From: Candidatus Omnitrophota bacterium
GTDB taxonomy: Bacteria; Omnitrophota; Gorgyraeia; Gygaellales; Profunditerraquicolaceae
DNA: 64,000 nt
Direction of reading: 5' to 3'
NCBI GenBank assembly: GCA_043808425.1
Contig: JAZDEW010000064.1
Location: 11,772-75,771, forward strand
Position numbers and translations under genes: made by a program. Below the pieces are notes generated by a model, which was given only the letters and a program-made list of their open reading frames with translations, made no database searches and was not told where the DNA came from. Positions 26,592 through 63,731 of the stretch are shown piece after piece (positions within the stretch are counted from its first letter, which is position 1; every line of letters begins with the position of its first letter).

Positions 26592-27985
26592 TCCCGCACT
26601 ACCTTTCGATCATTAAATTTCAATGCTCTATTTTTTAATATTTGATAATCCTCATGCCCTTTACCGGCAACCAGTAAGCAATCCGCCTGATTAATTAAAG
26701 ATAGCCCTTTACGAATAGCTTGCCGGCGATCGGAGATTGAACAATAATTGGTCTTCTGTATGCCCTGCTGAATATCCTTAATAATCTGGCCAGGGTTTTC
26801 CGAGCGAGGATTATCGCTGGTGATAATCGCATAATCCGCTAACTCCGTAACCACTTTGCCCATCTGCGGACGCTTAAGCTTGTCCCGCTCTCCGCCGCAG
26901 CCAAAAATTACAACAATCTTACCCTTAATCAACGGCCTTAGAGCGCTAATCACATTAAAAAGCGCATCCGGTGTATGCGCATAATCAACGAAAATACTGC
27001 CTACTTTTGAACAATTAATTTTTTCTAATCTGCCGGGAACATTTTTAAATTTTTCAATCGCACGCTTAATATCCTGAACGGGTAATTTTTCACTTAACCC
27101 CCAGGCAACCGCAGCCAAAATATTATAAATATTATAACATCCTACCAGACTTGTCTTCATCCTGACATAAATATGTGGAGCAACTAATAAAAATTCCGTT
27201 GACTGCAGGTTAAAATTAATCTCCTTGGCCATTATATCAGATTTTCTCTTTATCCCATAAGTTAATATCTTAGCTTTAGTTAAACGCTTAATCCGGTTAC
27301 CATGCTGATCATCATTATTAATAATCGCTGTGCTGGTTGCCGGTAGGGCAGAAAAAAGTTTAGCTTTAGCTAAGAAATAATTTTTTAAGTTCTTATGATA
27401 ATCCAGGTGATCCTGGGTAAGATTGGTAAAAACAGCGTGGCTAAAATTAATTCCTGCCGCCCTCTCCTGGGCTAAAGCATGGGAAGAAACTTCCATCGCG
27501 CAATATTTAACTTTTCCTAGATACATCTTCCTAAGTAGTCCTTGCAGCTCCGCGGCTCCGGGAGTAGTATTTTTGGCAATAATAATTCTACCCTTAAAAC
27601 GGTAATTAATCGTACCAATCACTCCGCAGTCATAGCCGGATTCTTTGGCCATCCGTTCGATCAAATACGCAATAGTCGTCTTACCGTTAGTGCCGGTAAT
27701 GCCGACAACTTTAACCTTATTTGAAGGAGCGCCATAAAACTTATGCGTAACTTGGGCAAAAAACTTGCGACAATCATTAACTACTAAAAATACAACTTTT
27801 GCCCGGGATTTTATCTGAGGCGCCTTTTTCTCAACAACAACGATAACCGCCCCACGAGCAATTGCCTCTTGAATAAAATGATTGCCATTTTGACGCTCGC
27901 CCTTAATCGCCACAAAAAGAAAACCTTTTTTTATTTCTTTGGAATTAGAAGTTATTCCTTTAATCTCTAAATCAACGATTTTCAC
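26570..27985 (-). CDS. murE: UDP-N-acetylmuramoyl-L-alanyl-D-glutamate--2,6-diaminopimelate ligase
   Basis: Mur ligase with GTNGKTT P-loop. GTG start at 27985. Confidence 0.85.
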   Translation of the reverse strand: MKIVDLEIKGITSNSKEIKKGFLFVAIKGERQNGNHFIQEAIARGAVIVVVEKKAPQIKSRAKVVFLVVNDCRKFFAQVTHKFYGAPSNKVKVVGITGTNGKTTIAYLIERMAKESGYDCGVIGTINYRFKGRIIIAKNTTPGAAELQGLLRKMYLGKVKYCAMEVSSHALAQERAAGINFSHAVFTNLTQDHLDYHKNLKNYFLAKAKLFSALPATSTAIINNDDQHGNRIKRLTKAKILTYGIKRKSDIMAKEINFNLQSTEFLLVAPHIYVRMKTSLVGCYNIYNILAAVAWGLSEKLPVQDIKRAIEKFKNVPGRLEKINCSKVGSIFVDYAHTPDALFNVISALRPLIKGKIVVIFGCGGERDKLKRPQMGKVVTELADYAIITSDNPRSENPGQIIKDIQQGIQKTNYCSISDRRQAIRKGLSLINQADCLLVAGKGHEDYQILKNRALKFNDRKVVRECLRLMK

Positions 27986-27991
27986 TGTGCG

Positions 27992-28079
27992 CCTTCCTGC
28001 CTGCCGGCAAGGCAGGCTTTCTTACTTGATTTATCAAGCCATATGCTTTTAATAATTGAATACTTAGAAGGTACTAGGT
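27992..28079. repeat. Bipartite intergenic repeat element, copy A, in the ftsI-murE spacer
   Basis: Imperfect palindrome CCTGCCTGCCGGCAaGGCAGG, then an AT-rich stretch, then the 26-nt stop-proximal box gaatacttagaaggtactaggttca that overlaps the ftsI stop. About 80% identical to copy B over roughly 80 nt. Confidence 0.7.
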
Positions 28080-29777
28080 TCATTGTCTTCTTGCCTCCAC
28101 AGGTATTTGGCTTCCTTTTAAGTAACGGATAACATCTCCGGCGACTTTTTGAAATACCGGAGCAGCAACTACCCCGCCAAAATAATAGGGATGCGGCTCA
28201 TCCACGGTCACCACGATAGTTAATAAAGGGTCTTCGGCAGGTAAAAAACCAATAAAAGAAGCCACAAACTTATTATGAGAATAACTTCCATCCGGCTCAA
28301 CTTTCTGGGCAGTACCCGTTTTACCGGCAGCGCTAAACCCCAGAACCTTACCCATTTTACCTGTTCCTTCCTCAATTACTCCGGTAAGGATTTTTTTAAT
28401 TCGCAGCGCCGTATCCACAGAAATAACTTTACGCATCAATACTGGTTTATTTTGCTTAATAATCCGGCCCTGATTATCACGCACAGAATCAATAATATAC
28501 GGCTTCATTAATTGCCCCCCATTAGCAATTACGGAAATTGCGCTAGCCAATTGCAAAGCACTCACCCCTACTTCGTGCCCCATAGGCACCGAGGTAATCG
28601 ATGCCTTCGACCAAAGACGCGGCGGGCTAATCATCCCCGATATTTCTCCGGAAAGATCAATTCCTAATTTTGATCCAAAACCAAAAGCCCGGATGTATTG
28701 ATACAACATATCCGGGCCTAAAAGCTGGGCCACCTTAACAGTGCCGATATTACTAGACTCTTCAATAATCTCCCTAAAAGTAAGCCGGCCATGCGGTTTA
28801 TGGTCATGCAAAATACGGCCCCCTACCTGGTAAGATCCATTTTCACAAAAAAATACATCTTTCTCCGTAACCTTTTTTTCTTCCAGCGCGGCAGAAGCGG
28901 TAACTATTTTAAATACTGAACCAGGCTCAAATAAATCACAAATTGCCCGATTTCGCATCGAATCCTTACTCGCGCCAGAATGATTATTTAGATCATAAGT
29001 AGGCCGATTAGCCATAGCTAAGATCCTACCGGTATGCGGGTCCATCACCACGATACTAGCGCCCTTAGCGTGAAAATCGATAAAAGCCTTATCTAGCTCT
29101 CTCTCCGCGATATATTGAACAACCTCATCAATGGTCAAAACTAAATCCATACCATCTTGCGGCAAAACCATCTTCTCCCAAATATCTAATTTTTTCATCC
29201 GCGCATCACGTAAAAAAATCGCCCAGCCAGGAACACCTTTTAAATAATTATCAAAGCTTCTCTCTACGCCCTCTAGGCCAATATTATCCATACCGCTAAA
29301 ACCAATAATGTGGCTAGCCAAATAACTATTTGGATAAATACGTTTAGTTTCCCTTAAAAACCCTAATCCTTTAATATTTAAATTCTTGATTGCCTCGGAT
29401 TTATCCGGAGCAAGCTTACGCGCCAGCCAAATAAAAGACTTTTTACGACTCAATCTATCCTGCAAATAGCTGTGCTTTAAGCCAAGTATGGGCAATAATT
29501 GCCTGATAACAGACTCTTTGTCTTTAATAATATTAGGAACAGCATAAAGAGAATCCATGGACATATTAAATGCCTGCGCCTTAAGATTACAGTCATAGAT
29601 TGCCCCGCGAGGCGGTTCCAACTCCACAAGCTGATTATGTTGTTTTTTAGCGATTGAGGTAAGATAATCCGAACGGAATAGCTGAATAAAAAAAAGTCGG
29701 CCCACGCAAAGCAAAAGAAATACAAAAAAAATCAAAAACACCGCCTCACATCTTCGGCGATAGTTACTGATATACAC
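28080..29777 (-). CDS. ftsI: Peptidoglycan D,D-transpeptidase FtsI (PBP3)
   Basis: N-terminal transmembrane helix, PBP dimerisation domain, and transpeptidase motifs SVFK, SSN and KTGT. Confidence 0.88.
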   Translation of the reverse strand: MYISNYRRRCEAVFLIFFVFLLLCVGRLFFIQLFRSDYLTSIAKKQHNQLVELEPPRGAIYDCNLKAQAFNMSMDSLYAVPNIIKDKESVIRQLLPILGLKHSYLQDRLSRKKSFIWLARKLAPDKSEAIKNLNIKGLGFLRETKRIYPNSYLASHIIGFSGMDNIGLEGVERSFDNYLKGVPGWAIFLRDARMKKLDIWEKMVLPQDGMDLVLTIDEVVQYIAERELDKAFIDFHAKGASIVVMDPHTGRILAMANRPTYDLNNHSGASKDSMRNRAICDLFEPGSVFKIVTASAALEEKKVTEKDVFFCENGSYQVGGRILHDHKPHGRLTFREIIEESSNIGTVKVAQLLGPDMLYQYIRAFGFGSKLGIDLSGEISGMISPPRLWSKASITSVPMGHEVGVSALQLASAISVIANGGQLMKPYIIDSVRDNQGRIIKQNKPVLMRKVISVDTALRIKKILTGVIEEGTGKMGKVLGFSAAGKTGTAQKVEPDGSYSHNKFVASFIGFLPAEDPLLTIVVTVDEPHPYYFGGVVAAPVFQKVAGDVIRYLKGSQIPVEARRQ

Positions 29778-32641: not shown

Positions 32642-33613
32642 CTATTTTAAGTCCTGACAAATTTTAGCAATAACTTTACCTCGCACAGCCAAGAACCCTC
32701 CGGGAATAGTGCAACCGGCGGCAGTCTTATGCCCTCCCCCTCCAAAAAAAGATGCGATCTTATTTACGTCAACCTTACCCTGGCTTCTTAAATTAACACG
32801 GATCTGGGATTTTAAGCTTAAGCTATCCTTAAATAATACTACCACCTCTACTCCTTTAATCGCCCGGCCAAAATTTAAAGCATAGTCCGCTAAATCAGTC
32901 CCCGGTATTTTAGCTCCGGATGGCTCAGCAGCGATTCTAAGGGCAGCAATCCTTCCCCGGCCAAAAAATTTTATTTCTAACAATAATTTAAGCAGCGATT
33001 TTACCTCTGAGGGCAAAATATTTTCATAAGCATAACGATAGACCCGCGCGACATTAATTTTAAATTTCAAAAGTTCCGCGGCAGCCTTAAACGTAGAACT
33101 AGAAGTATTAGAATAGCGAAATGATCCTGTGTCCGTCATGATGCCCGTGTACAAAACTAAAGCGGTGTTTTTATCCAACGGCAAACGTAGATGTTTATAC
33201 AACCGATAAATCATCTCTGAGCAGGAAGAGGCCCGCGCGTCTACCCAATTTACATCGCCAAAGGCCTGATTGCTAATATGATGATCAATATTTAATACCG
33301 GCTTATGATCGATGTTAAGCTTATGGACTCTTCCTGTGCGCTTTAAGTCCGCGCAATCCAGAACCACTAAACAATCAAATTTAATAGATTTAAATTTCTG
33401 GCCTAAGCGGCGAATATATTTAATCCCGGGAAGAAAATCATAACCATAAGGTAATTGATCATCGCTCATGATTATGGCCCGTTTACCTAATTTTTTAATA
33501 AGCCTATAAAACCCCAGCGCAGAACCCAGGGCATCAGCCTCCGGGCTGATATGAGCAGTAATCAAAAAATTATTATATTTCTCTATACTCTGGCAGATTT
33601 CATTTAGGCTCAT
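32642..33613 (-). CDS. nrnA: DHH/DHHA1 phosphoesterase, NrnA-like oligoribonuclease / pAp phosphatase
   Basis: DHH family motifs (HISPEADALGS, LNIDHH) with a C-terminal GGGGH DHHA1 motif. Confidence 0.75.
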   Translation of the reverse strand: MSLNEICQSIEKYNNFLITAHISPEADALGSALGFYRLIKKLGKRAIIMSDDQLPYGYDFLPGIKYIRRLGQKFKSIKFDCLVVLDCADLKRTGRVHKLNIDHKPVLNIDHHISNQAFGDVNWVDARASSCSEMIYRLYKHLRLPLDKNTALVLYTGIMTDTGSFRYSNTSSSTFKAAAELLKFKINVARVYRYAYENILPSEVKSLLKLLLEIKFFGRGRIAALRIAAEPSGAKIPGTDLADYALNFGRAIKGVEVVVLFKDSLSLKSQIRVNLRSQGKVDVNKIASFFGGGGHKTAAGCTIPGGFLAVRGKVIAKICQDLK

Positions 33614-33700
33614 CTTACACCTTCCTGCCTGCCGGCAGGCAGGCTTTCTTAATTAATTTATCAAACTGCATAACTTTAATAATTAAATACTTAGCTAAGT
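33614..33700. repeat. Bipartite intergenic repeat element, copy B, in the rbfA-nrnA spacer
   Basis: Perfect 20-nt palindrome CCTGCCTGCCGGCAGGCAGG at 33624-33643, lying 10 nt upstream of the nrnA ATG after AAGGTG on the coding strand, then an AT-rich stretch and a degenerate stop-proximal box. Confidence 0.7.
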
Positions 33701-35410: not shown

Positions 35411-35420
35411 CTTCTCCCAA

Positions 35421-35469: not shown

Positions 35470-36357
35470 CTATGGCCGCGGATGAAACATCTGATAAACC
35501 GTTTTAAGCCGCTCTTTATCGATATGCGTATAAATCTGGGTTGTCGAGATATCAGAGTGTCCCAGCATCTCCTGCACTGAACGCAGATCCGCGCCTCTTT
35601 CCAGTAGATGCGTGGCAAATGAATGCCTAAGAGTATGCACTTTTATCGATTTTTTAATTTTAGCCTCTTGGGCATACCGCTTAATTAATTTCCAAACAGA
35701 CTGCCGGGATAGCTTAGCCCCAGAACGACTGATAAAAATAAACTCTGAAGTTTTTTGTTTTAAAAAATACGGCCGGCTGAATTCTAAATAACGATTAATA
35801 CCATGAATAGCTTTTTTGCCCAACGGAATAATCCTCTCCTTATCTCCCTTTCCAATACAACGCAAAAATCCAATATCTAAATTAACATTATTAGTTTTAA
35901 GATTGCTTAATTCCGATACGCGCATTCCTGTGGCATAAAGAGTTTCTAAAATTGCCTTATCTCTAGCGCCCTGGCGCTCACGCACATCAGGCTGGCTAAT
36001 TAATAACTCCACTTCATTTAAAGAAAGGGTGTCCGGAATCTTCTTCCACAATTTTGGAGAATCAATCAAAGTAGTCGGATCGCTTTTTAAAACTCTTTCT
36101 CTGGCTAAAAAACGATGAAACATGCGTATCGCCGCCAAACGGCGCGAGATACTTACCGGCGATATTCCAGCAGTTTTTTGAAAAAGCATAAATTCCACAA
36201 TGTCGTTTTTAGTAACCTTGGAAAGCGCCGATATTCCTCGTTTATCAATAAAATCCAAATAAAGATTCAAATCCACCCGATAGGCAAAAATGGTATTTTT
36301 AGCCAGAGCGCGCTCAACCAAAAGATAATCTAAAAATGAGTCAATAAGTTCTTTCAC
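35470..36357 (-). CDS. xerD: Tyrosine site-specific recombinase XerC/XerD
   Basis: N-terminal SAM-like domain and C-terminal catalytic R..HxxR..Y motifs (HTLRHSFATHLL ... IYTH). GTG start. Confidence 0.8.
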   Translation of the reverse strand: MKELIDSFLDYLLVERALAKNTIFAYRVDLNLYLDFIDKRGISALSKVTKNDIVEFMLFQKTAGISPVSISRRLAAIRMFHRFLARERVLKSDPTTLIDSPKLWKKIPDTLSLNEVELLISQPDVRERQGARDKAILETLYATGMRVSELSNLKTNNVNLDIGFLRCIGKGDKERIIPLGKKAIHGINRYLEFSRPYFLKQKTSEFIFISRSGAKLSRQSVWKLIKRYAQEAKIKKSIKVHTLRHSFATHLLERGADLRSVQEMLGHSDISTTQIYTHIDKERLKTVYQMFHPRP

Positions 36358-36433
36358 CTCGCACCTTCTTTTCTATTTAATACATTAAACCAGACAGCTT
36401 TAATGATGGAATATCCAGAAGGTGCGGGGCTCA

Positions 36434-37054
36434 TTATACCCTAAACAGGTTGTTGTTCTTTTCTCTTCCAATGGTGGTAGCGGCTCCGTGCCCCGGATAA
36501 ACTTTAGTATTATCCGGCAAGACAAATAATCTATCTCTAATCGCCTCCTCCAACCGCTGCTGACTGCCTCCCGGTAAATCAGAGCGCCCTACACCCTGAC
36601 AAAACAAAGTGTCGCCGGTAAAAATAATATCTGTTTGCGGTTTTCTCATCAAAAGGCCGATACCTCCCGGAGTATGTCCGGGCAGATGCATTACCTCCAA
36701 TTCCAAACAATCTAATTTAATAATTTCTTTATCCTGTAAAGCTTTAATCTCAGAATTAACCTGATAGGCCAAAGAAAAACTAGCAGAAAAGTTTTTTCGG
36801 GCATCCACAAGCATAGGAAGATCCATTTTATGCGCATAAACCAAAACGCCAAATTCGTCGTCACTGCCGATATGGTCATAATGCCCATGCGTATTGATCA
36901 CCATAGCCGGTTTTAAACTATGCTTATCTAAAACCGCCTTAATCTTAAGGTGCTGATCGCCAGGATCGATAATAACCGCCGGCCCGCCGCCGGCGCAAGC
37001 CAGAATATAACAATTAACCTGCATCGAGCCAACCTTGACTGTTTCTAAGATCAT
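36434..37054 (-). CDS. Metallo-beta-lactamase-fold hydrolase (glyoxalase II-like)
   Basis: HGHYDH zinc-binding motif. Confidence 0.75.
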   Translation of the reverse strand: MILETVKVGSMQVNCYILACAGGGPAVIIDPGDQHLKIKAVLDKHSLKPAMVINTHGHYDHIGSDDEFGVLVYAHKMDLPMLVDARKNFSASFSLAYQVNSEIKALQDKEIIKLDCLELEVMHLPGHTPGGIGLLMRKPQTDIIFTGDTLFCQGVGRSDLPGGSQQRLEEAIRDRLFVLPDNTKVYPGHGAATTIGREKNNNLFRV

Positions 37055-41222: not shown

Positions 41223-41273
41223 CTTCGTCGCTCCGCTGCCCAAAATAAAAAGCGTATATTTATATCTCAAAAA

Positions 41274-44126: not shown

Positions 44127-44232
44127 AAATCTACACTCACTTCCCCGCGCTGCTCCCTCTTCGTTCTTTATTAGCCATACTTTACACCTTGATCCCTATC
44201 CGATAAGTCCTCAAGCTTACCGCGAAACTTCT

Positions 44233-44357: not shown

Positions 44358-44444
44358 CCATCAAAAACCCTATTGTCACAAAAATATTCTATAAATTCGG
44401 AATAACTATTCGGACTCAAAAAGCGAAAGAAGTATTCCCTATTA

Positions 44445-47222: not shown

Positions 47223-47248
47223 ATTATTTGGGGTTATAAAATTTTCGC

Positions 47249-48301
47249 TTAAGGCAATATCCTCTTTTGAGATTCGGTATTTTTTAAAAGTTTTTTTACT
47301 TCACGATCAAAATCAGAAACAAAAAGTTTGTCTTGAACCGGTTTGTATTTCTCGAATTCGCTTTCCGCGAAAGATTTAGCTATTTCTGCCGTTACTTTTC
47401 CCGCGTTTTCCAAAATTTTCGCATCGTTAAATTTCAGAAAAGCGTTTAATTTTCCTGACCAGTCCCGCATTGTCATGGGTATCCCTTTTTCCGCTTGGTA
47501 TTCGGCATAATCAAGATACATAGTTACAATTCTGTTTAAAAATTTTATTTCTTTTTCATTAAGATAATTTTTGGCAATTACCACATCGGATTTTAGAATT
47601 TTCCCGTCCGCTGATTTTTTCCAAGTAGTAAGCCCCATATAGTCTTTAGTGTGATTGGCGCGATTGACAATAACTTCCGCCGCCGTGTGCCCATGCGTGG
47701 CAAAATGAAGTTTGTTTTGAACTGTGGCAAAAAAATCTTTGGTCGTTGGAGACCGTAAATCATAATCAATTGCAGTTACATAAATATCTGTAATTTGTTG
47801 ATAAAAATTTCTTTCACTCTCGCGAATATCGCGAATTTCAAGTATCAAATCTTTGAAATACTGCTTACTTAAATATGCTCCATTTTTTAATCTCACATCG
47901 TCAAGAACATATCCCCGAATAGCGTAATCTTTCAAAACTTGAGTAGCCCACCGTCTAAAATCTACTGCCTTTGAGGAATTAATTCTGTATCCAAGAGCGA
48001 TAATAATTTCTAAATTATAATAGTCAACCGCTCTTTTTATCTGCCTATCTCCTTCTTTTTGAACTGTTTCCAAAATGGAAATAGTTGCTTTTTTTGACAA
48101 TTCTCCTTCATCGTAAATATTTTTTAAATGTTTGGAAATAGCCGGAATATTCACGTCAAAAAGTTTTGCGATAAGTTTTTGAGTAAGCCAAATATTTTCA
48201 TCGTAAATTCTCACTTCAATGCCATTCTCTTCGGCTTGAGATGTGAAAATAAGAAATTCCGCGGTAGAATTACGAATTATAAGTTTTTTATCTTTTGCCA
48301 T
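47249..48301 (-). CDS. rhuM: RhuM-family protein (virulence protein RhuM-like)
   Basis: N-terminus AEFLIFTSQAEENGIEVRIYDENIWLTQKLIAKLFDV...HLKNIYDEGEL matches the conserved RhuM N-terminal domain. It is intercalated between mod and res. Confidence 0.65.
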   Translation of the reverse strand: MAKDKKLIIRNSTAEFLIFTSQAEENGIEVRIYDENIWLTQKLIAKLFDVNIPAISKHLKNIYDEGELSKKATISILETVQKEGDRQIKRAVDYYNLEIIIALGYRINSSKAVDFRRWATQVLKDYAIRGYVLDDVRLKNGAYLSKQYFKDLILEIRDIRESERNFYQQITDIYVTAIDYDLRSPTTKDFFATVQNKLHFATHGHTAAEVIVNRANHTKDYMGLTTWKKSADGKILKSDVVIAKNYLNEKEIKFLNRIVTMYLDYAEYQAEKGIPMTMRDWSGKLNAFLKFNDAKILENAGKVTAEIAKSFAESEFEKYKPVQDKLFVSDFDREVKKLLKNTESQKRILP

Positions 48302-48309
48302 AATTATAT

Positions 48310-50316
48310 CTAACGGGGTAAATAAAATTCTTCGCTTAAAGCGATATCTGCTTTGGAAAGATTATATTTTTTATCCGCTCGCTCGCTAAAATTCACATAC
48401 ATTTGGTTCAGATCCAACATTTCCACAAAAAGTTTTTTCTGTTTGTCCAAACCCAGCTTTTTAAATTCTTCCTCTTTAACGCTTTCTTGGAATTTTTTAA
48501 TTTCAACATTGTAATTGATAAAATATCGTTCATAAAGCTCATCAAATAATTTTTCCAATTCGCTTAAATTCTTGGCTTTCAAAATTCTCTCTTTGGCTTC
48601 TTCGTTCCATTTGGCAATTTCAAGATATACAAAATCCCCAGCCTTATTGTTTTCAATAACTTTTTTAACCCGTTCTTTTGTCACTGTATCAACATAGTGC
48701 ATTTGCTCGCACAAAATAAACTGCCGGTTTCCGCCATCTTCTTTGTTTAATTCTAAAACCGCGTGAGCGGTGGTTCCGCTTCCAGCAAAAAAATCAAGAA
48801 CAATATCTTCTTTACCTCGCTCTGTAACAATATCAATAGTATCTTTAACTGTATAAAGGGATTTAGGATAACTAAATAATTTATCTCCCGAAAAAATATT
48901 TTTCAATAGCATCGTACCATTTGCTGAAGCATCATATTTTGAATCAATCCATATCGTTTTTGGCTTTCTGCCATCCTTAATTCTATCCTTCATATAAATA
49001 ACACATTTTCCAGTAGTTTTTTTACAAACCATATCACCTCTTTTAACAGCTTCTAAAAAAGATGGCCGTGTTTGTCTCCAAACTCGTTTTTTCCCAAGCT
49101 TATCAATTGGAAATATTTCAATGTATCCCGATTTTTTATCAAGAGCAAAAATATTATTTTTTTCATCAAAATATATTGGATAGTATGAATTCGGCCTTTC
49201 TTCTGGAGTAGAAGTTCCGCCACTTCGCCTAAACGGCAAAAGACGATAGTCCCCTGAATTATCTTTTTTATCAAAATCTAATTCTTGCTCTTTTGTTAAT
49301 TTAAGAAAATTCAACGAAACCTGATCAATATCTTTCGCATAAAACATTGCGTACTCGTGTGAAGTCGCAAAATGCGTATTTGTAGTTCTGCCCCGTGGAT
49401 TACTTTGCACAATAACCGTACCAACAAAATTTTCTCTTCCAAATACTTCGTCGCTTAAAATTTTCAAATGAGCTTGCTCAGAATCATCAATGGTAACAAC
49501 AATTACTCCCTCGTCGCTCAATAATGTTTTTGCTATGTCCAATCGATTCTTAATAAAAGTCAGCCAAGAAGAGTGGTTAAAACTGTTATTATAGACAAAG
49601 GTATTATTTTCTCCTTCTGTATTATACGGCGGATCAATATAAATCAATTTTACTTTTCCAGCAAATTGCTCTTTTAAACAATGCAAGACAAGCAAATTAT
49701 TGCCCTTGATAATCAAATTATCCTTAATCACGCCATTTTCATCGCGGCGAAAACCGAGATTGCCGCGGTCGCTATCGCTCCCTCGCAATGACAGCATAGA
49801 ATGCTCGCCGTCTCTGTCTATTCGTTTAAAATTAGTAAATGCTTTGGGATCAAAAAGCCGGTCAATTTCATCTTTGGCTAAAACTTCATTAAAGAATACC
49901 TCGTTTCTTTTTTGATCTTCTTTGGTCATGCCGCCTTCCAACACACAATCCTTGAAAGGCCAATCCAAAACAACCTCTTCACGCTCGGAAAGAAGTTTAT
50001 TGCCAACGCGTAAACCGATTTTATTTTGATATTGAGTATACGAATTATCCAGCTTATTTTCATCAATAAAAAATTTCAAATCATTATGTTTTAAAACAAA
50101 AACATCTTTAATCCTGATAAAAAACTTTTCTTTTATTTCTTTATCGCTAAGTAACAATTCAATAATTTTCTCATCCAGCTTATCAATCAAATCTTTCAAA
50201 AGAGTCTCGTTGATCTCTTTTTTTTCTTCATCCCAAAGCCGAGCGTCTTTTTTAAGTATTTTATACAGATTGTCTTTAAATTTGTTTCCCATAGTAAAAT
50301 TTTCCCTTTTTTCCAT
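48310..50316 (-). CDS. mod: Type III restriction-modification system methyltransferase subunit (Mod; beta-class N6-adenine/N4-cytosine MTase)
   Basis: Motif IV DPPY (LIYIDPPYNTE) precedes motif I FxGSG (VLDFFAGSGTTAHAV), which is the beta-class order. A long middle region is consistent with a target-recognition domain. Confidence 0.82.
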   Translation of the reverse strand: MEKRENFTMGNKFKDNLYKILKKDARLWDEEKKEINETLLKDLIDKLDEKIIELLLSDKEIKEKFFIRIKDVFVLKHNDLKFFIDENKLDNSYTQYQNKIGLRVGNKLLSEREEVVLDWPFKDCVLEGGMTKEDQKRNEVFFNEVLAKDEIDRLFDPKAFTNFKRIDRDGEHSMLSLRGSDSDRGNLGFRRDENGVIKDNLIIKGNNLLVLHCLKEQFAGKVKLIYIDPPYNTEGENNTFVYNNSFNHSSWLTFIKNRLDIAKTLLSDEGVIVVTIDDSEQAHLKILSDEVFGRENFVGTVIVQSNPRGRTTNTHFATSHEYAMFYAKDIDQVSLNFLKLTKEQELDFDKKDNSGDYRLLPFRRSGGTSTPEERPNSYYPIYFDEKNNIFALDKKSGYIEIFPIDKLGKKRVWRQTRPSFLEAVKRGDMVCKKTTGKCVIYMKDRIKDGRKPKTIWIDSKYDASANGTMLLKNIFSGDKLFSYPKSLYTVKDTIDIVTERGKEDIVLDFFAGSGTTAHAVLELNKEDGGNRQFILCEQMHYVDTVTKERVKKVIENNKAGDFVYLEIAKWNEEAKERILKAKNLSELEKLFDELYERYFINYNVEIKKFQESVKEEEFKKLGLDKQKKLFVEMLDLNQMYVNFSERADKKYNLSKADIALSEEFYLPR

Positions 50317-50325
50317 AATATAATT

Positions 50326-51162
50326 TTATTTCAATTTTTTAGTTTTTAATTTTGGCAAAAAGTTTTCGCCTGTAATCACGCTTTTTCCAGTTTTTTCTTC
50401 CAAAGCCGTTCTCGCGTCTTTAGCAATTTTACCGCCTTTCTTCGCGGGAATCTTGTTAGCCTCCAAACCTTTTGTTTCCATAGTTTCCGCGATTTGGCGA
50501 GTGGAAAGTTCCGCCAAGGCCGTAAAAACCAATTCCGCGTCAGACATATGATCCCGTAAATTTTGCGTCTTTAACTTCTTTAAATTTTTATGTTCTCTAA
50601 CCGACAAATCACTCCATTCTTGGTGGATAATATTTGTCAAAATAGCGTATTCGTCTTTTTCTTCAACTTCGTTGTCTTTCCAGTAATCCGTCAGCTTATT
50701 CCTAACTTCCTGCCCCATCATTCTTTGCTGAATCCATTTTTGGCTTCGGCCCATTTTTTGCCAATAATCACGGCTGCGATTAAGTGCTTTTTCAGGATCA
50801 CTTATTTCTTTTATTCTTTCATAACCAACTTTTGCAAGCCAAAGCTTTATCGGCTCGGCTTTTTTACTCGGAACCGATTGAATAATTCTAAATAGATGCT
50901 CAGGATTTCCGGCTAAAGTTTTTCTGTTTTTCCCTGTTTCCGTGCCCATTTCTATCTGGGGACAATTTGTCCCTATGTAGCGGCCAAGTTCAGAATCCCT
51001 TTTTCTTAATTTTTTCAAGTAATCCGTGGGATTGACGCTTCCAGTAAGCGCAAAAATAATATCCACCACGGAAAAATACCATGATCCTTTTTGTTCATCA
51101 TAGAAACGCCGGATTTTATAGGTTTCAAAAATTGCCAATGAATTTTGATTATTTTTCTTCAT
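50326..51162 (-). CDS. Bro-N / KilA-N domain protein (DinD-like, DNA-damage-inducible protein D family)
   Basis: N-terminal IRRFYDEQKGSWYFSVVDIIFALT matches the Bro-N fold. It is the first gene after radC in the defence operon. Confidence 0.55.
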   Translation of the reverse strand: MKKNNQNSLAIFETYKIRRFYDEQKGSWYFSVVDIIFALTGSVNPTDYLKKLRKRDSELGRYIGTNCPQIEMGTETGKNRKTLAGNPEHLFRIIQSVPSKKAEPIKLWLAKVGYERIKEISDPEKALNRSRDYWQKMGRSQKWIQQRMMGQEVRNKLTDYWKDNEVEEKDEYAILTNIIHQEWSDLSVREHKNLKKLKTQNLRDHMSDAELVFTALAELSTRQIAETMETKGLEANKIPAKKGGKIAKDARTALEEKTGKSVITGENFLPKLKTKKLK

Positions 51163-51170
51163 ATTTTAAT

Positions 51171-51854
51171 TTAAATTAACCCTTTATCCTTAAAACTTAA
51201 AAACCCATTTGCCGTAACAATGATATGATCAATAATTTCAATCCCCATAATTTTACCAACCTCAACTAATCTTTTGGTAATCGTCAAATCGTCTTCCGAC
51301 GGTTTGGGGTCGCCCGAGGGATGATTGTGAACAAATATCACGGATGCCGCCTTATTTTTGATGGCTTCGGCGAATACTTCGCGCGGATGGACAATGCTGG
51401 CGTTAAGGCTGCCCACGGAAACCTCTGCCACTGAGTGATTTCTACTATTAAGAGCGATAATATAAAAATGTTCTTTTTGATAATCTTTGAGTCTGCTTTT
51501 TATCAACTGATAGACCTTTAGGGGATCGGTAAGTTCTTTACTCTTATATGGCGGGGCCTGAGTAGAAACGCGGCGTCCAATTTCAAAAACGGCTTTTATT
51601 TGTGACGCTTTTGCTAATCCAATTCCTCTAACTGAAGACAGCTCCTCAATACTTGCTTCGGCTAATTTCTGTAAACTGCCAAATTGCGATAGTAGTTTTT
51701 GCGCCGTGACTACCACCGATTCACCAGCAATACCGCGCCCTAAAATAACCTGTAATAACTCCTGAGCCGAAAGCGCCTGTTCACCAAACTTTACCAATCG
51801 CTCGCGTGGACGTTCATCGGCTGGTAGATCATGAATAGTAAACGATTTGCTCAT
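51171..51854 (-). CDS. radC: RadC-like JAB/MPN domain protein (UPF0758)
   Basis: N-terminal HhH region (ELLQVILGRG) and C-terminal JAMM motif HNHPSGDPKPSEDD. Confidence 0.8.
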   Translation of the reverse strand: MSKSFTIHDLPADERPRERLVKFGEQALSAQELLQVILGRGIAGESVVVTAQKLLSQFGSLQKLAEASIEELSSVRGIGLAKASQIKAVFEIGRRVSTQAPPYKSKELTDPLKVYQLIKSRLKDYQKEHFYIIALNSRNHSVAEVSVGSLNASIVHPREVFAEAIKNKAASVIFVHNHPSGDPKPSEDDLTITKRLVEVGKIMGIEIIDHIIVTANGFLSFKDKGLI

Positions 51855-51908
51855 ATTTAATCAAACCATTAACGCTAACTTATAACGTTTTGGCGATTTT
51901 TGTTAGAT

Positions 51909-51986
51909 TGGTCGGGGAGAGCGGATTTGAACCGCTGACCTCTTGCTCCCGAAGCAAGCGCTCTAGCCAAGCTGAGCCACTCCCCG
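51909..51986 (-). tRNA. tRNA-Pro (anticodon CGG)
   Basis: Minus-strand sequence CGGGGAGTGGCTCAGCTTGGCTAGAGCGCTTGCTTCGGGAGCAAGAGGTCAGCGGTTCAAATCCGCTCTCCCCGACCA folds as a cloverleaf. It has a 7-bp acceptor stem, a GCTC/GAGC D stem, a CTTGC/GCAAG anticodon stem with loop TTCGGGA, a GGTTCAAAT T loop and an encoded CCA. Confidence 0.88.
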
Positions 51987-52001
51987 TTAATCTATTTAAA
52001 A

Positions 52002-54412: not shown

Positions 54413-55224
54413 TTTTTAGCCAGCCTTAATTTTTCCACTAATTCCAACGGTATTTTAATCATGCCTAATTTTATCTGAGGTTTTGCATGGCCATGGAAAT
54501 CTGTTCCTCCGGTAACCAAAAGATTAAGCTTCTTAACTAAATCCAGATAAAAATTAACCACCGCCTGGGAATGCTCAGGATAATGCACTTCAATACCCTC
54601 TAGCCCATAATCTGTAAATTCAGCAATCAAGGCGTCATTATGCAGCATATACGGGTGCGCTAAAACCGCTACCCCGCCGGCAGCATGAATTAATTTTATA
54701 GCCTCCGGCACAGAAAGACAAAAACCCGCAACATAAGCCGGAGATTTATCTCCGATATATTTACGGAATGCCTCAGAAGTAGAACCCACCAATCTTTCTT
54801 TAACTAATGCTTGGGCAATATGCATTCTACCCACCGTGCCCTGCCCAGAAATATTAAAAACAGTGCCCGGATTAAGCTTTAATCCCAGAGCCCCTAAATT
54901 CTCTACTATTTTATAAACCCGTTGAATACGATTAAGTTGTAATAATTTTAATTTTTCAAGCAGCTCTTTATTCTGATAGTCCAAAAAATACCCTAGAATA
55001 TGTATCTCCTGATTCTCATGCTGGGCAGTTAATTCAATGCCCGGAATAATCTCTAAATCCTTTCCCTGGGCTTGAGCAAATGCTTCAGCCAGGGCGTCGG
55101 TGGTATCATGATCCACAATCGCCAGCACAGAAATACCTCGCGCGATTGCTTCCTTAATCAATTGCGCGGATGTATATGTGCCATCACTGTGAGAGGTATG
55201 CACATGCAAATCAGCATATTTCAT
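54409..55224 (-). CDS. PHP-domain phosphoesterase (TrpH/YciV-like)
   Basis: N-terminal DLHVHTSHSDG PHP metal-binding motif. Confidence 0.7.
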   Translation of the reverse strand: MKYADLHVHTSHSDGTYTSAQLIKEAIARGISVLAIVDHDTTDALAEAFAQAQGKDLEIIPGIELTAQHENQEIHILGYFLDYQNKELLEKLKLLQLNRIQRVYKIVENLGALGLKLNPGTVFNISGQGTVGRMHIAQALVKERLVGSTSEAFRKYIGDKSPAYVAGFCLSVPEAIKLIHAAGGVAVLAHPYMLHNDALIAEFTDYGLEGIEVHYPEHSQAVVNFYLDLVKKLNLLVTGGTDFHGHAKPQIKLGMIKIPLELVEKLRLAKK

Positions 55225-55297
55225 CAGGCACCTTCTAATTTATTCATTCTTTTTAGCCTTTTAGTTTTTAGTATTGAATACAAAGAAGGCGCGGGGT

Positions 55298-55714
55298 TCA
55301 TTTTTCTTTTTCAATTTTTATTTGATCCAGTATAGCATTAACAAACTTACCCGACTCTAAGCCGGAATATTTCTTAGCTAGCTCCACCGCTTCATTAATC
55401 GCCACTTTGGGGGGGATATCCACCCGAAACAAAAGCTCAAAACAGCCCAGGCGCATAATATTACGATCCACAAATGCCATACGTTCAAGCTGCCAATTCG
55501 TAGCATATTTGCTAATCATTTTATCAATCTCCGACAAATGATCAATCACTCCCCCTAGCAGCTCAGAAGAAAAATCTTTAAGCTCACCAGACATATCAAG
55601 CCGGTCATTGCTTGCAGAAAAATTTTCTAAAACTTCCTGCCAATTACCCTGAGTAATATCCACCTGGTAGAGCATTTGCAATACATATTCACGTGCTTTA
55701 GTCCGTTTACGCAT
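55298..55714 (-). CDS. nusB: Transcription antitermination factor NusB
   Basis: KRTKAREYVLQMLYQ N-terminus and all-helical NusB fold. It sits next to ribH as in many bacteria. Confidence 0.8.
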   Translation of the reverse strand: MRKRTKAREYVLQMLYQVDITQGNWQEVLENFSASNDRLDMSGELKDFSSELLGGVIDHLSEIDKMISKYATNWQLERMAFVDRNIMRLGCFELLFRVDIPPKVAINEAVELAKKYSGLESGKFVNAILDQIKIEKEK

Positions 55715-57644: not shown

Positions 57645-57800
57645 ATACTCATTGGCGGGTCCGCCGTACATTATAGCGGAAATCTTCTTCCATCTGGACT
57701 ATGACCATCGGCCCTGGAATCTCACCAGATCTGTCCGCCAATGAATTAAAGGCTGACTCGCGGGCTAAACCGCCGGTAAGGATTTTCACCTTGCCCTAAA
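57645..57800 (-). ncRNA. FMN riboswitch (RFN element) controlling ribBA-ribH
   Basis: Minus strand has AGGGCAAGGTGAAAATCCTTACCGGCGGTTTAGCCCGCGAG ... CAGATCTGGTGAGATTCCAGGGCCGATGG ... AGTCCAGATGGAAGAAG. These match conserved RFN blocks (GGTGAAATTCC, CCGGCGGTA, AGCCCGCGA, GATCTGGT, GATGGGAGAAG). Confidence 0.8.
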
Positions 57801-57871
57801 GATTAATTGCTATTTAGTTTAACAGAGAAACTAGACTTGTCAATATATTTAAAACGGGTATAATATCTATT

Positions 57872-58817: not shown

Positions 58818-59392
58818 AGACGAGTAATTACTTTACGGTTAGCCCATAAATATGACAGCCCGGAATAAAGAGTTAGCCCAACGGTTACCAGCATGAGAAA
58901 AAATATCCCCCGATGAAAGATCTTTTCCCAAGCAGGATTCCAGGTATAATATTTTAATAAAATCTCTTTAAGCAGAATAAATCCTAAAATAATAAAAATA
59001 ACCGCCATCTGTAAAACTGTCTTATGTTTACCAGCACGCGCCGCAGAAAGTATCTTACCCTTATTCAGAGCAAACAGGCGCATGGAAGTAATTAAAATTT
59101 CCCTAGAAACTATAATTACGAACATCCAAGCATCAATTAACTGCAACTGCACAAAAGCCGCGAAAGCGGCCAAAACTAAAATTTTATCCGCAATCGGATC
59201 CATCAATCTACCAAAATCCGTTACCATATTCCTGCGCTGCGCGATCAGGCCATCAAAATAATCCGATAAAGCGGCCAAGATAAAAACCACCAAACTAATA
59301 GCTTTAGGCCAAAGCCCGTTACAAAACAAAAAAAACATAAACACAAAAGTTAATAAAATGCGCAACATGGTCAACCGATTAGCAAGATTCAT
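58814..59392 (-). CDS. pgsA: CDP-diacylglycerol--glycerol-3-phosphate 3-phosphatidyltransferase
   Basis: CDP-alcohol phosphatidyltransferase motif DYFDG...G...DPIADK. Confidence 0.85.
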   Translation of the reverse strand: MNLANRLTMLRILLTFVFMFFLFCNGLWPKAISLVVFILAALSDYFDGLIAQRRNMVTDFGRLMDPIADKILVLAAFAAFVQLQLIDAWMFVIIVSREILITSMRLFALNKGKILSAARAGKHKTVLQMAVIFIILGFILLKEILLKYYTWNPAWEKIFHRGIFFLMLVTVGLTLYSGLSYLWANRKVITRL

Positions 59393-59509
59393 CGTACACC
59401 TTCCTGCCTGCCGGCAGGCAGGCTTTCATATTTAATTTTTTAATTTGATTCCTACTTTTATAAATTCTATATTTCTAACCCCTTGAATACATAGAAAGTG
59501 CGGGATTCA
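59393..59509. repeat. Bipartite intergenic repeat element, copy D, in the rimO-pgsA spacer
   Basis: Perfect palindrome at 59403-59422 followed on the coding strand by AAGGTGTACG-ATG(pgsA). The 26-nt box ttgaatacatagaaagtgcgggattca overlaps the rimO stop. Confidence 0.7.
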
Positions 59510-61539: not shown

Positions 61540-63731
61540 TCAGCACCTTCTCTCTTATTCATCCCAGTAGTTTCCACGCCTTTAGCACCAGTCAATTCTT
61601 TGAGCCAAGCCTGACGGTCAACTAAAATCCGGCGCGGCTTACTTCCTTCAAACTGCCCCACTAACCCTTCTGCCTCCATCATATCAATAATGCGCGCGGC
61701 ACGCGTATATCCTAAGCGCATTCGCCGCTGCAATATAGAAACCGAGGCCTGATTACTTTCCATGATTACACGCACCGCTTCATCATAAAGCTCATCTTTA
61801 TCGCCATTGGCTAAACTATTTTTTTGCTGCTCCTTAAGAATCTGCTCATCATAAGCCGGCTCACCTTGAGCCTTAATAAATTTTACCACCCGCTCAATCT
61901 CAGCATCTTTAACCAAGGCCCCCTGAATACGCACTAAATCTTCTTTTCCGGGTTGCAAAAATAACATGTCCCCCTTGCCTAATAAAGCCTCCGCGCCATT
62001 GCCATCTAGCACTGTACGTGAATCAACTTTAGAGGCCACTTTAAAAGATACGCGCGCCGGTAAATTTGCTTTAATTACTCCGGTAATTACATCCACGCTT
62101 GGCCGCTGCGTAGCTAAAATCAAATGTATGCCTACCGCCCGCGATAGCTGCGCCAAACGCGTAATCGCATTCTCAATCTGATCACGCGCCACACTCATTA
62201 AATCCGCAAACTCATCAACAACAACAATAATATAAGGAATCTTTTCCTGCTTTTCATTATATGCCTCAATATTCCTAACTCCGATTTTAGATAAGAGCAC
62301 GTAACGAGATTCCATCTCGGAAACCACCCAATTAAGGGCAACGGCTGCCTTCTTGGCGTCTGTAACTACCGGACACAAAAGATGCGGCAGGCCATTAAAA
62401 GGCATCAGTTCCACCATCTTAGGATCAATCATTAAAAATTTTAAATCATTCGGAGATCCGCGGAAAAGTAATGACAAAATGCAGGTATTCACGCAGACAG
62501 TTTTACCAGAACCGGTAGTTCCGGCAATTAACAAATGCGGCATATCATCTAAATCACCAAATACGGATCGACCGGTAATATCCTTGCCCAAAGCGATGGT
62601 CAAAAACGACTTATGCTTATGATACTCCGCAGAGGTAAGCAAATCTCGAATACAAACTAATGTACTCTGCAGATTAGGCACCTCCACCCCTACCCTGCCT
62701 TTTCCCGGAATAGGAGCGATAATCCTGATCGACTGGGCCTTGATCGCCAAAGCGATATCATCACTTAAGGCCTCAATACGGTTAATCTTTACTCCGGCCG
62801 CCGGTTCCAATTCATAACGAGTAATAACCGGGCCACGGATAATATCCGTAACTTTTGCCAAAATACCAAAATCTTCTAAAGTATCTTCCAATGTCCTAGC
62901 GCAGGCCTCCAAGTCTTCTTTCATTTGTTTATTATCCGCCGGCGGCGGCGCGTCTAATAAATCCACGGAAGGCAAATGATAATCACCAATCTTTAGTTCG
63001 CTAGTTTTTATCTTAATTTGCTCTAGCGGCTTATTTTTAATCTGAGTTTTTAAATCTGACATAAAAATTTTAGGCTTCGATAAGCCAGGCTCAAAATCTT
63101 GTCTTTTAGGCAATAAGCTATTTTTACCGCCAAGGTTGGGCTTAATTTTCGCTACAAGATGTTTTTGCCGATTAGAAAAAAAAGACAGACTGGAAAAAAC
63201 AGATTTTATTTTTCCGGCGAGCTTAAGAAAAAGCGAAGAAATAAGAATCTCCGTCACCAGGGCCAAAGAGAGAATGATAAAAGTAATAAAAATAATAAAA
63301 CCGCCTAAACGGCTAAAATAAGTAGTGATGAAATTAGCCGTAAGCGCGCCAAAAAATCCTGAGGTCTGGAACCTTAAGCTATCGTTATTTAAATTAAACA
63401 TACCGATGAGCGAGCTTATGGAAACCAGCAGCACAAACATTCCTAAAATGCGCGCCACGCTTAAGTAGGGCTTATCCTGGCGAAAATATTTTATGCCCAG
63501 CATGATCACTAAGAAGGGTATGCAAAAACTGGAGAGACTACCAAAAAGTAGAACGATTAACCCGGCCAAATAGGCACCAAAAACTCCCAGAAGATTTTTA
63601 GCGGGGAAATTAGGAGCGGAGGTGTAAAAAACAAGATCCAAACGGTCAAAGCGAACAAGGCTGGCCAAAACCATCAACCCCGCCGCTACCAGAACAACGC
63701 CCTTGACCTCATTAATTCTTCTTTCTCTCAC
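61536..63731 (-). CDS. ftsK: DNA translocase FtsK/SpoIIIE
   Basis: N-terminal transmembrane segments, Walker A motif LLIAGTTGSGKTV and a C-terminal gamma winged-helix domain. Confidence 0.9.
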   Translation of the reverse strand: MRERRINEVKGVVLVAAGLMVLASLVRFDRLDLVFYTSAPNFPAKNLLGVFGAYLAGLIVLLFGSLSSFCIPFLVIMLGIKYFRQDKPYLSVARILGMFVLLVSISSLIGMFNLNNDSLRFQTSGFFGALTANFITTYFSRLGGFIIFITFIILSLALVTEILISSLFLKLAGKIKSVFSSLSFFSNRQKHLVAKIKPNLGGKNSLLPKRQDFEPGLSKPKIFMSDLKTQIKNKPLEQIKIKTSELKIGDYHLPSVDLLDAPPPADNKQMKEDLEACARTLEDTLEDFGILAKVTDIIRGPVITRYELEPAAGVKINRIEALSDDIALAIKAQSIRIIAPIPGKGRVGVEVPNLQSTLVCIRDLLTSAEYHKHKSFLTIALGKDITGRSVFGDLDDMPHLLIAGTTGSGKTVCVNTCILSLLFRGSPNDLKFLMIDPKMVELMPFNGLPHLLCPVVTDAKKAAVALNWVVSEMESRYVLLSKIGVRNIEAYNEKQEKIPYIIVVVDEFADLMSVARDQIENAITRLAQLSRAVGIHLILATQRPSVDVITGVIKANLPARVSFKVASKVDSRTVLDGNGAEALLGKGDMLFLQPGKEDLVRIQGALVKDAEIERVVKFIKAQGEPAYDEQILKEQQKNSLANGDKDELYDEAVRVIMESNQASVSILQRRMRLGYTRAARIIDMMEAEGLVGQFEGSKPRRILVDRQAWLKELTGAKGVETTGMNKREGAE

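Follow-up and report, generated by a model that had tools for sequence, protein, structure and literature searches.

A box that follows stop codons in an Omnitrophota genome is probably the left end of a very small, MITE-like mobile element

Why should one short sequence box stand directly after the stop codons of several different genes in a single bacterial genome? The question is raised by a 64,000-nucleotide stretch of DNA from a Candidatus Omnitrophota bacterium (contig JAZDEW010000064.1, positions 11,772 to 75,771; "the window" in what follows). The window has about 40% G+C, a strongly negative GC skew, and long open reading frames (ORFs) that lie nearly all on the minus strand. An initial annotation saw in the box a regulatory module of the host, conserved between cistrons and defined by the stop codons, that would pair with the Shine-Dalgarno (SD) sequence of the next gene. 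[quoted passage not shown]

The box itself is real. When the pattern GAATAYNNAGAARGYGCGGGRNTCA was searched on the plus strand of the window, with the chance level taken from shuffles, three matches without mismatch (36409-36433, 55276-55300 and 59485-59509) and one with 3 mismatches (28058-28082) were found. These are four copies where 0.01 are expected, and one truncated copy adds to them. The copy after nusB had been placed at 55270-55297, about 3 nt off. The degenerate copy seen near 33675-33700 does have the inner part CTAAGTATTTAATTATTAAAG and the right half, but it lacks the CCCGCACCTTCT core. Each box was also said to end on the stop codon of the upstream gene. This holds for rimO (59507-59509), nusB (55298-55300) and the gene of an ftsI-type penicillin-binding protein (PBP; 28080-28082), but not for the gene of a metallo-beta-lactamase (MBL)-fold hydrolase, whose in-frame stop is the TAA at 36434-36436 and for which the TGA of the box is the next triplet.

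Read in the sense of the mRNA, five spacers have a plan in common: a stop, (R)YCCCGCACCUUCU-nnn-UAUUCAA, an A+U-rich stretch, an occasional GC palindrome, and AGAAGGUGC-nnn-AUG or GUG. In the rbfA/nrnA spacer, the core of this plan is absent. The anatomy first described (a box abutting TGA, complementarity to the SD, one unit of 75-115 nt together with the spacer) was borne out, as was the GC palindrome in three spacers.

What kind of unit has this anatomy? Its consensus is Y-CCCGCACCTTCT-nnn-TATTCAA ... (T)GAATA-nnn-AGAAGGTGCGGG-R, between direct repeats of 4 bp with the consensus TGAA. In its 64 kb, the window holds five gene-less miniature derivatives, 73-114 nt long, and one solo arm. The parts of the copy between rimO and pgsA (copy 1) are these:

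59392..59505, minus strand: copy 1, a 114-nt miniature element between rimO and pgsA
59483-59505, minus strand: left arm of copy 1, T-CCCGCACTTTCT-ATG-TATTCAA, which is the box minus TGAA
59392-59404, minus strand: right arm of copy 1, GGAAGGTGTACG-A, the final A being the first base of the pgsA start codon
59506..59509, minus strand: left target duplication TGAA, in which the TGA at 59507-59509 is the rimO stop
59388..59391, minus strand: right target duplication TGAA, which is bases 2-5 of pgsA
59403..59423, no strand assigned: GC-rich palindrome GCCTGCCTGCCGGCAGGCAGG, nested in the right arm between ATGAAAG and AAGGTG

The A at 59510, together with TG, is the former start of pgsA. The box of copy 1 is mutated to CACUUUCU.

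An exact look-up of the pgsA protein found a sister contig (L001, assembly GCA_043809945.1) that is 99.7% identical to the window over 7.9 kb and has no copy 1. There, rimO and pgsA overlap as ATGA, reading ...AAAACTATGAATCTTGC... / CTATGAATCTTGC. Relative to this contig, the window has 114 extra bases and a second TGAA; the empty site, CTA-TGAA-TCTTGC, has TGAA once. The products of rimO and of pgsA have the same length in both, and those of pgsA are identical. The sister strain also carries the copies at nusB/PHP, MBL/integrase and rbfA/nrnA.

A metagenome scan with the left flank of the rimO/pgsA junction gave three further lineages (76-87% identity). The site is empty in L115 and L116 (76-87% identity) and filled in L114 (84%). 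The L114 copy aligns with copy 1 along its whole length, has the variant CACTTTCT in common with it, keeps its right arm intact (AAGAAGGTGCGGGATG) and lacks the GC palindrome; at the position of the palindrome, it reads ATGAAAG followed at once by AAGGTGCGGGATG. The GC palindrome in copy 1 is a later, secondary insertion of 20 nt between ATGAAAG and AAGGTG. Copy 1 is probably older than the split from L114 and was lost exactly in the 99.7% identical strain; the alternative is an exact and recent gain from a similar master copy. Gain or loss, the event was precise to the base, and it left or restored a working ATGA overlap. The same was sought elsewhere: an empty ftsI/murE site gave no match in the metagenome search, and exact-protein look-ups of murE, nrnA, rbfA, the ftsL region and ftsI matched no record.

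Two observations concern the sister assemblies themselves. The contig L003 of the sister metagenome-assembled genome (MAG) ends inside copy 5 (L003 3838-3914), and the repeats seem to fragment the short-read assemblies of these genomes, as at L003 and at the contig ends of L001 and L002. In L002 (about 400-445, against 55296-55312 in the window), the A-run before the nusB stop is shorter by one A, which carries nusB as called on into the box; the difference is due to either a genuine frameshift or a fault of the assembly.

The element is, of course, not confined to these strains. One scan of species-representative genomes with CCCGCRCYTTCTNNRTATTCMA returned 104 stretches. True copies number 91, in 41 MAGs (22 Omnitrophota, 17 Planctomycetota and 2 named only "bacterium"); 14 stretches are scattered single matches in unrelated taxa, where about 17 are expected by chance, as estimated from the information content of the pattern. 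Viral contigs gave no match. The proteins of the window are 72-83% identical to those of Omnitrophota MAGs. The same ends recur at more than 50 unrelated gene starts in two phyla, and, within one MAG, copies taken from different host genes share 94.5-97% identity (97% for L087/L096, 94.5% for L011/L087 and for L064/L072).

These ends behave as the ends of a mobile element. Over 56 distinct host genes, the outermost Y/R pair covaries: it is C..G in 26, T..A in 26 and mismatched in 4 (Fisher 4e-11). Of 82 copies, 70 have the same 4-mer on both flanks. A flank other than TGAA, on one side or on both, is seen in 26 copies, and in 14 of these 26 the same variant (TGAG, TGGA, TGCG or TTCA) stands on both sides. 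Identical variants on both flanks mean that the repeat derives from the target, and not from the element. Judged by the asymmetric inner parts, at least 80 copies are co-directional with the host gene and 4 are inverted. Tandem arrays of whole elements, or extra arms, stand at a single host start codon in L004, L024, L026, L029, L051, L058 and L092. Several left flanks are in fact the right arm of a further copy, so that elements accumulate one behind the other at the same start codon; from these arrays the newly made start region is itself a target. By structure, the copies in the window have the features of a MITE: terminal inverted repeats, Y-CCCGCACCTTCT and AGAAGGTGCGGG-R, extended by TATTCAA/GAATA; a target-site duplication; a size well below about 500 bp (73-114 nt in the window, with no GIY-YIG or other ORF found by tblastn); and a dispersed, multi-copy family with presence/absence polymorphism.

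Where does the element insert? It sits exactly at the start codon of a host gene. The old A and the left TGAA are the former start, ATGA(A); the final base R of the element and the right TGAA make a new start codon, RTG; and the right arm puts an SD-like AGAAGGTG 4 nt upstream of that new start. Where two genes overlapped as ATGA, the left TGA doubles as the stop of the upstream gene. The R-TG beside the right arm opens an ORF of at least 50 codons in 61 of the 71 copies whose right arm is recognisable. On the other side, 80 of the 91 copies have a start triplet (ATG, GTG or TTG) at -6..-4 of the left flank, and 31 of these 80 start-bearing flanks have GGAG, GAGG or AGGA at -18..-4, against a background of 8.6%. 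With its start triplet and SD-like motif, the left flank therefore resembles the original ribosome-binding site and start of the host.

The link to stop codons is looser. Only 29 of the 91 copies (32%) have a TGA that ends an upstream ORF of at least 60 codons; in 33, the upstream stop is 1-12 nt further 5' (as TAATGA and the like), and in 25 it is more than 12 nt away. Across genomes, then, stop codons do not define the element, contrary to what had been supposed. Its constant partner is the downstream start codon, and an overlap with a stop is what results in one special case, that of an ATGA overlap of stop and start as the target.

The other copies in the window repeat this arrangement. 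The names of the neighbouring genes have Pfam support at the family level (Radical_SAM/TRAM, CDP-OH_P_transf, NusB, PHP and Lactamase_B; further, Phage_integrase, RBFA, PBP transpeptidase, Mur ligase and DHH/DHHA1).

55224..55296, minus strand: copy 2, a 73-nt element between nusB and the PHP gene
55274-55296, minus strand: left arm of copy 2, C-CCCGCGCCTTCT-TTG-TATTCAA
55224-55236, minus strand: right arm of copy 2, AGAAGGTGCCTG-A
55297-55300 and 55220-55223, minus strand: TGAA duplications of copy 2
55224..55301, minus strand: relay mini-ORF of copy 2, MNPAPSLYSILKTKRLKRMNKLEGA and a stop; ATG overlapping the nusB stop (ATGA), TGA overlapping the start of the PHP gene (TGATG)
36357..36429, minus strand: copy 3, a 73-nt element between the genes of the MBL-fold hydrolase and a tyrosine recombinase
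36407-36429, minus strand: left arm of copy 3, C-CCCGCACCTTCT-GGA-TATTCCA
36357-36369, minus strand: right arm of copy 3, AGAAGGTGCGAG-G
36430-36433 (TGAG) and 36353-36356 (TGAA), minus strand: flanking repeats of copy 3
36354..36434, minus strand: relay mini-ORF of copy 3, MSPAPSGYSIIKAVWFNVLNRKEGAR and a stop; its ATG overlaps the upstream TAA stop (TAATG) and its TGA overlaps a GTG start (GTGA)
27985..28078, minus strand: copy 4, a 94-nt element between the ftsI-type PBP gene and murE
28056-28078, minus strand: degenerate left arm of copy 4, C-CTAGTACCTTCT-AAG-TATTCAA
27985-27997, minus strand: right arm of copy 4, GGAAGGCGCACA-G, with a GC palindrome at 27996-28017
28079-28082 and 27981-27984, minus strand: TGAA duplications of copy 4
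27982..28083, minus strand: relay mini-ORF of copy 4, MNLVPSKYSIIKSIWLDKSSKKACLAGRQEGAQ and a stop; it overlaps the PBP stop as ATGA and the murE start as GTGA
33613..33694, minus strand: copy 5, between rbfA and nrnA, 5'-truncated, with the CCCGCACCTTCT core lost and the inner sequence kept
33624-33644 and 33613-33625, minus strand: palindrome of copy 5 and its right arm, GGAAGGTGTAAG-A
61540..61575, minus strand: solo right-arm remnant, GGGATGAATAAGAGAGAAGGTGCTGA-ATGA, at the junction of ftsK and a rodZ-like gene

Copies 2 and 3 represent subfamilies of 71-73 nt that are present in several Omnitrophota MAGs. Copy 3 is of the same 71-73-nt family as L011, L087, L095 and others, and the orthologous nusB/PHP junction in L042 holds the subfamily of copy 2. 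Copy 5 is homologous to copy 4 over its full length. The solo arm appears to supply the last codons of FtsK (..GMNKREGAE and stop) as well as the SD of the next gene, and is similar to the doubled right ends of the full-length copies L058 and L077.

A small module of its own is the GC-rich palindrome GCCTGCCTGCCGGCAGGCAGG, which occurs at 33624-33644, 41203-41223 and 59403-59423, with a variant at 27996-28017. It is nested in the right arm of three elements and present in one unrelated spacer; in another Omnitrophota MAG it stands alone, just upstream of a start codon (L072 3209-3228). On the antisense (plus) strand it scores as an intrinsic terminator. Scans of the elements gave no terminator on the sense strand and no convincing promoter, and a promoter or terminator role was set aside.

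What happens to translation when an element takes over a start codon? In copies 2, 3 and 4 both ends of a mini-ORF overlap the neighbouring genes as stop/start overlaps, and both ends of the nuclease gene do so in L108, described below. At 21 of 56 distinct sites, the frame runs uninterrupted from the old ATG into the overlapping TGA, where 3.1 such sites are expected when interiors are shuffled, and the length of the element has the required frame at 30 of the 56 (p = 0.0014). Many miniature copies have a relic ORF of 25-40 codons; the frames of window copies 2, 3 and 4 are open for 25, 26 and 33 codons, that of copy 4 through its nested palindrome. Copy 1 meets a stop after 11 codons; the left end of copy 5 is gone. 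Open frames occur in at least 12 subfamilies of distinct sequence, while the interiors vary freely in sequence and in length (57-375 nt). Translation through the element is preserved, and the identity of the peptide is not.

The two arms can also pair in the mRNA. Minimum-free-energy folds pair box and SD at nusB/PHP (z = -3.7), at MBL/integrase (z = -5.7, a 13-position stem) and at ftsI/murE (z = -2.5). They show no such pairing at rimO/pgsA, where the box is mutated to CACUUUCU, or at rbfA/nrnA, which has no box; the duplex that had been proposed is thus predicted in three spacers and not in the other two. Among the mismatches between arms, counted by eye, about 11 are of the wobble type (G·U) and about 5 of the mismatch type (A·C); these numbers are too small to tell selection on the RNA from selection on the DNA, and they are confounded by A-to-G changes that improve the SD.

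Is there a parent that encodes a protein? Long copies (L027, L031, L058, L064 and L077; 292-375 nt) have an ORF of 87-96 amino acids between the same arms, and full-length copies with these arms are also found in L108 and L111. The autonomous-looking form has about 290-375 bp and one gene, for a single-domain GIY-YIG nuclease of 85-105 amino acids. The protein matches Pfam GIY-YIG with E ~1e-15, and its best solved relatives are the UPF0213 proteins 1zg2 and 1ywl. Against TIGR01453, the group I intron endonuclease model, it reaches 21 bits where the cut-off is 56, and the proteins, at 85-125 amino acids, are smaller than homing endonucleases with a C-terminal DNA-binding domain, which have over 200. 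A protein search gave 469 homologue clusters (62-100% identity) in Omnitrophota, Phycisphaerae, Sedimentisphaerales and one Uhrbacteria MAG; residues of the catalytic motifs are at least 95% conserved. Among the 120 clusters listed, the N-terminus MNPAPS... is called in 33 and the C-terminus ...EGAG in 32.

These termini are the arms, translated. The box AAC-CCC-GCA-CCT-TCT gives codons 2-6 (N-P-A-P-S) of the frame that starts on the host's old ATG, and the SD region AAA-GAA-GGT-GCG-GGG-TGA reads K-E-G-A-G-stop, the stop overlapping the host's new start. In many full-length copies the frame from the old ATG is the nuclease; in the rest, the nuclease uses an internal start, an ATG just inside the left arm. 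In L108 a gene of 100 amino acids stands between the genes of two glycine-decarboxylase P subunits (gcvPA and gcvPB), with 4-nt overlaps, ATGA and GTGA, at its ends. In L111 a variant with CCTTTT/AAAAGG arms stands between two subunits of the isopropylmalate-isomerase type (aconitase family).

A mechanism can be proposed that joins these pieces. The AGAAGGUG of the right arm, 4 nt before the start, would serve as SD, and the left arm would mask SD and start in the mRNA by forming a hairpin with the right arm. Ribosomes that end the upstream gene on the adjacent UGA, or that start at the old ribosome-binding site, would translate the relay ORF and melt the stem; termination on RUGA would then lead to re-initiation on the host start, as in ordinary ATGA coupling. 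In this model, relay and hairpin melting together would preserve the original coupling, and the insertion would be nearly neutral. The GIY-YIG nuclease would move the element, by a route of cutting and repair that gives the 4-bp duplication and permits exact excision. Drawn in full, the proposal makes the parent an unrecognised class of autonomous prokaryotic mobile element of about 300 bp, whose sole gene, for a GIY-YIG nuclease of about 90 amino acids, is translated from the host's start codon; it would target RTGAA translation starts and repay the SD and the start, and its miniature derivatives would be relay ORFs that keep the operon coupled. We regard this fuller picture as a serious possibility that falls somewhat short of an even chance.

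Several points weigh against the explanation as a whole. Empty and filled states are seen at one junction only, rimO/pgsA, and the change there may have been a gain or an exact loss. Some of the openness of the mini-ORFs is shared by descent within a subfamily, so that the 21 open sites are not fully independent. The relay is not obligatory, since the host genes of copy 1, with its early stop, and of copy 5, which lacks a left arm, are presumably both expressed. A search of the window by tblastn found no nuclease gene; the copies in the window are therefore mobilised in trans or inactive. The weakest step is the GIY-YIG protein as the mobilising enzyme, a role that its co-occurrence with the arms and the shared ends suggest. 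GIY-YIG enzymes are not, to our knowledge, able to catalyse strand transfer, nor do we know of a GIY-YIG cut geometry that would give a 4-bp duplication.

How does the element compare with systems already described? It is MITE-like or like an insertion sequence (IS), and it is tied to a small GIY-YIG nuclease; the closest published system is Ssn/NTS (SRM). Ssn is a single-domain GIY-YIG protein of about 90-100 amino acids whose gene has a family-specific repeat on either side (Chenal et al., Nat Commun 2025, PMC11893778). That repeat is dispersed in many further copies without the gene, and the authors note the IS-like architecture (PMC11893778). The likeness is a tiny GIY-YIG gene between its own dispersed repeats. 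The differences are that each Ssn flank is its own hairpin of 20-50 nt with a CGTC/GTCAT tag, whereas the flanks of the element are inverted repeats of each other, and that the element, unlike Ssn, has a 4-bp target duplication, a site at the start codon, and arms translated as the N- and C-termini of the ORF. Mobility, association with start codons and coupling are not described for Ssn (PMC11893778). The published SRM hairpin expression (HGTCWY..YYVSBRH..WNVSBRG..RNCYNB) has no match in the window and 8 in 810 kb of loci, none of them at the ends of an element.

Bacterial MITEs (Correia, ERIC, RUP, and the Rickettsia RPEs that insert in frame) resemble the element in being short and gene-less, with terminal inverted repeats and a target duplication. 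They, too, are multi-copy, form hairpins in mRNA, lie in transcribed spacers, and occasionally give codons or signals to host genes. Known parents of MITEs are insertion sequences of the DDE type, while the only protein associated with this element is the tiny GIY-YIG nuclease. A literature search, whose coverage leaves out most papers in subscription journals, found no MITE reported to insert systematically on the start codon and to re-supply SD and start with a relay ORF; it found no description of the element, and the box sequence did not come up in a relevant context.

Like REP/REPIN-RAYT systems, the element consists of dispersed palindromic repeats linked to one nuclease gene that they flank. 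With GTAG-tagged REPs, the flanking ORF often takes its stop codon from the terminus of the repeat (Di Nocera et al. 2013, PMC3733652), which sets a precedent for the overlap with stops seen here. RAYT, however, is an HUH/Y1 enzyme, and REPs have no target duplication and stand downstream of genes, with other tags and other sequence. The associated ORF here is GIY-YIG, the arms are not self-palindromic, and a GTAG or CGTC tag is absent. Nor does the element look derived from IS200/IS605, with subterminal hairpins and no duplication, since its inverted repeats are terminal and a 4-bp duplication is present.

T-even phages carry seg and mob genes, selfish GIY-YIG genes that lie between conserved genes and are expressed from host transcripts; the element is alike in this. 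Their proteins exceed 200 amino acids, have DNA-binding domains and home to one site, where the element differs. We know of no inverted repeats, target duplication or miniature derivatives for seg or mob. At the level of translation, termination-reinitiation coupling where a stop codon overlaps a start codon (ATGA, TGATG) is established (Huber et al. 2019, PMC6728339). The element sits in overlaps of just this type and recreates one at each end of its ORF. It differs from ordinary coupling in that two overlaps are chained through an inserted relay ORF, with a hairpin that masks the SD between them.

Could the host, rather than a mobile element, have made these spacers? The initial annotation supposed so: a box fixed to the stop codon would have evolved to pair with the downstream SD for coupling or attenuation. 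Its complementarity to that SD was confirmed, and in copy 3 it reaches 12 of 13 positions; folding by minimum free energy predicts a box-SD stem for three of the five spacers, with z down to -5.7; and the box begins 1 nt after the UGA, which established ribosome geometry would place within the footprint of the terminating ribosome. This "anti-SD" character arises, however, because the arms are inverted repeats and the right arm carries the SD. A host module is, moreover, hard to reconcile with a 99.7% identical strain that lacks it and whose genes overlap by ATGA, with a target duplication and terminal inverted repeats, with the recurrence, across two phyla, of near-identical ends at over 50 gene starts that are unrelated, with full-length forms that bear a nuclease gene, with a TGA that is a real stop in only 32% of copies, and with the want of pairing in copies 1 and 5. 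As an account of the origin it is largely refuted and very improbable: the unit is a dispensable insertion. An effect on coupling remains plausible, and a secondary masking of the SD could survive. A second host-centred reading takes the spacers for small protein genes (MNPAPS...KEGAG, 25-40 amino acids) whose peptide is itself functional. Frames open far above chance (21 against 3.1) and conserved ends speak for it, but these ends coincide exactly with the two inverted-repeat arms, which makes the conservation one of DNA; the interiors vary freely (57-375 nt), and many copies have early stops, among them copy 1 of the window. We consider this reading extremely improbable.

Two further readings keep the nuclease and discard the transposon. 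Miniature copies might be in-situ decay products of a free-standing GIY-YIG homing-endonuclease gene that homes into the same junctions, and would not transpose themselves. The same junctions are indeed filled across lineages (the pgsA start in the window, L114, L023 and L020; nusB/PHP in the window, L042 and L004), many short copies retain recognisable N- and C-terminal codons of the nuclease, and the orientation is co-directional in at least 80 copies against 4. Decay in place does not, however, account for near-identical short copies (94.5-97%) at different host genes of one MAG, nor for interiors at the pgsA site that are unrelated among L023, L020, L008 and the window. The nuclease, at 85-105 amino acids, has no DNA-binding domain and reaches 21 bits on TIGR01453 against the cut-off of 56; and homing needs homologous flanks, which leaves more than 50 different sites unexplained. 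This reading is unlikely, although it is the strongest of the four. In the other, the arms would be domesticated repeats of the REP/NTS type, recognition sites of an Ssn-like, single-strand-specific GIY-YIG nuclease that modulates transformation or recombination, with no transposon at all. The architecture is that of ssnA and its NTS/SRM, a small single-domain GIY-YIG gene within its own repeats and many gene-less copies (PMC11893778). Yet the SRM expression is missing from the window and from the flanks of the elements (8 matches in 810 kb of loci), a single arm is not a hairpin and pairs with the other arm, and the start-codon placement, the continuity of frame and the 4-bp duplication are left unexplained; we hold it to be quite improbable. 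A mobile, MITE-like element remains the reading that we prefer.

Some candidates and neighbouring features can be mentioned briefly. A resemblance to an IS5-like end (GGAAGGTGCG) has the opposite orientation relative to the element tip, and it was dropped. Selenocysteine insertion, a read-through signal and a resemblance to 16S helix 45 were dropped given the insertion polymorphism. In Rfam no family matches the elements; in the window only an FMN riboswitch (110 bits; 57678-57807, minus strand, upstream of a DHBP synthase/GTP cyclohydrolase II gene) and one tRNA gene (51912-51986, minus strand) reach the gathering score. At 44127-44444 and 41068-41273 (minus strand) stand sequences of the type GTCAT...GAATGAC (CGTCATCCTGAGCGAAGCGAAGGATCT..., ...GCTCAGAATGACG), reminiscent of CGTC-tagged REP/NTS-SRM repeats, which the published SRM expression does not match. 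The spacer between an integrase-like gene and one of the poly(A)-polymerase family (35411-35469, minus strand) has repeated (A/G)TAGGTC(R) units, GUGAUAGGUCGUAGGUCGCAGGUCAUAGCUGAUAGGUCAUAGGUCGUAGGU. From about 44000 to 52000, G+C is lower (0.34-0.36 against about 0.40), AT skew is negative, and there are several long ORFs.

What would such an element mean for its hosts? It would be a parasite of the genome built to leave the translation of operons working, rather than a regulator evolved by the host. It takes the host's start codon and returns an SD and a start, and the translated bridge would keep termination-reinitiation coupling; as a tolerated parasite, it would show how life inside essential operons (the dcw cluster, nusB, rimO-pgsA, the gcvP subunits) is possible at almost no cost. 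For annotation, it means spurious small ORFs, shifted predicted starts and broken assemblies in MAGs of Omnitrophota and Planctomycetota. The arms and the nuclease may be a new pair of sequence-specific nuclease and site. Should the nuclease move the element, the element would be among the smallest self-contained mobile elements known, and GIY-YIG enzymes would have a transposon-like role in bacteria, one that has been raised only as a hypothesis in the Ssn paper.

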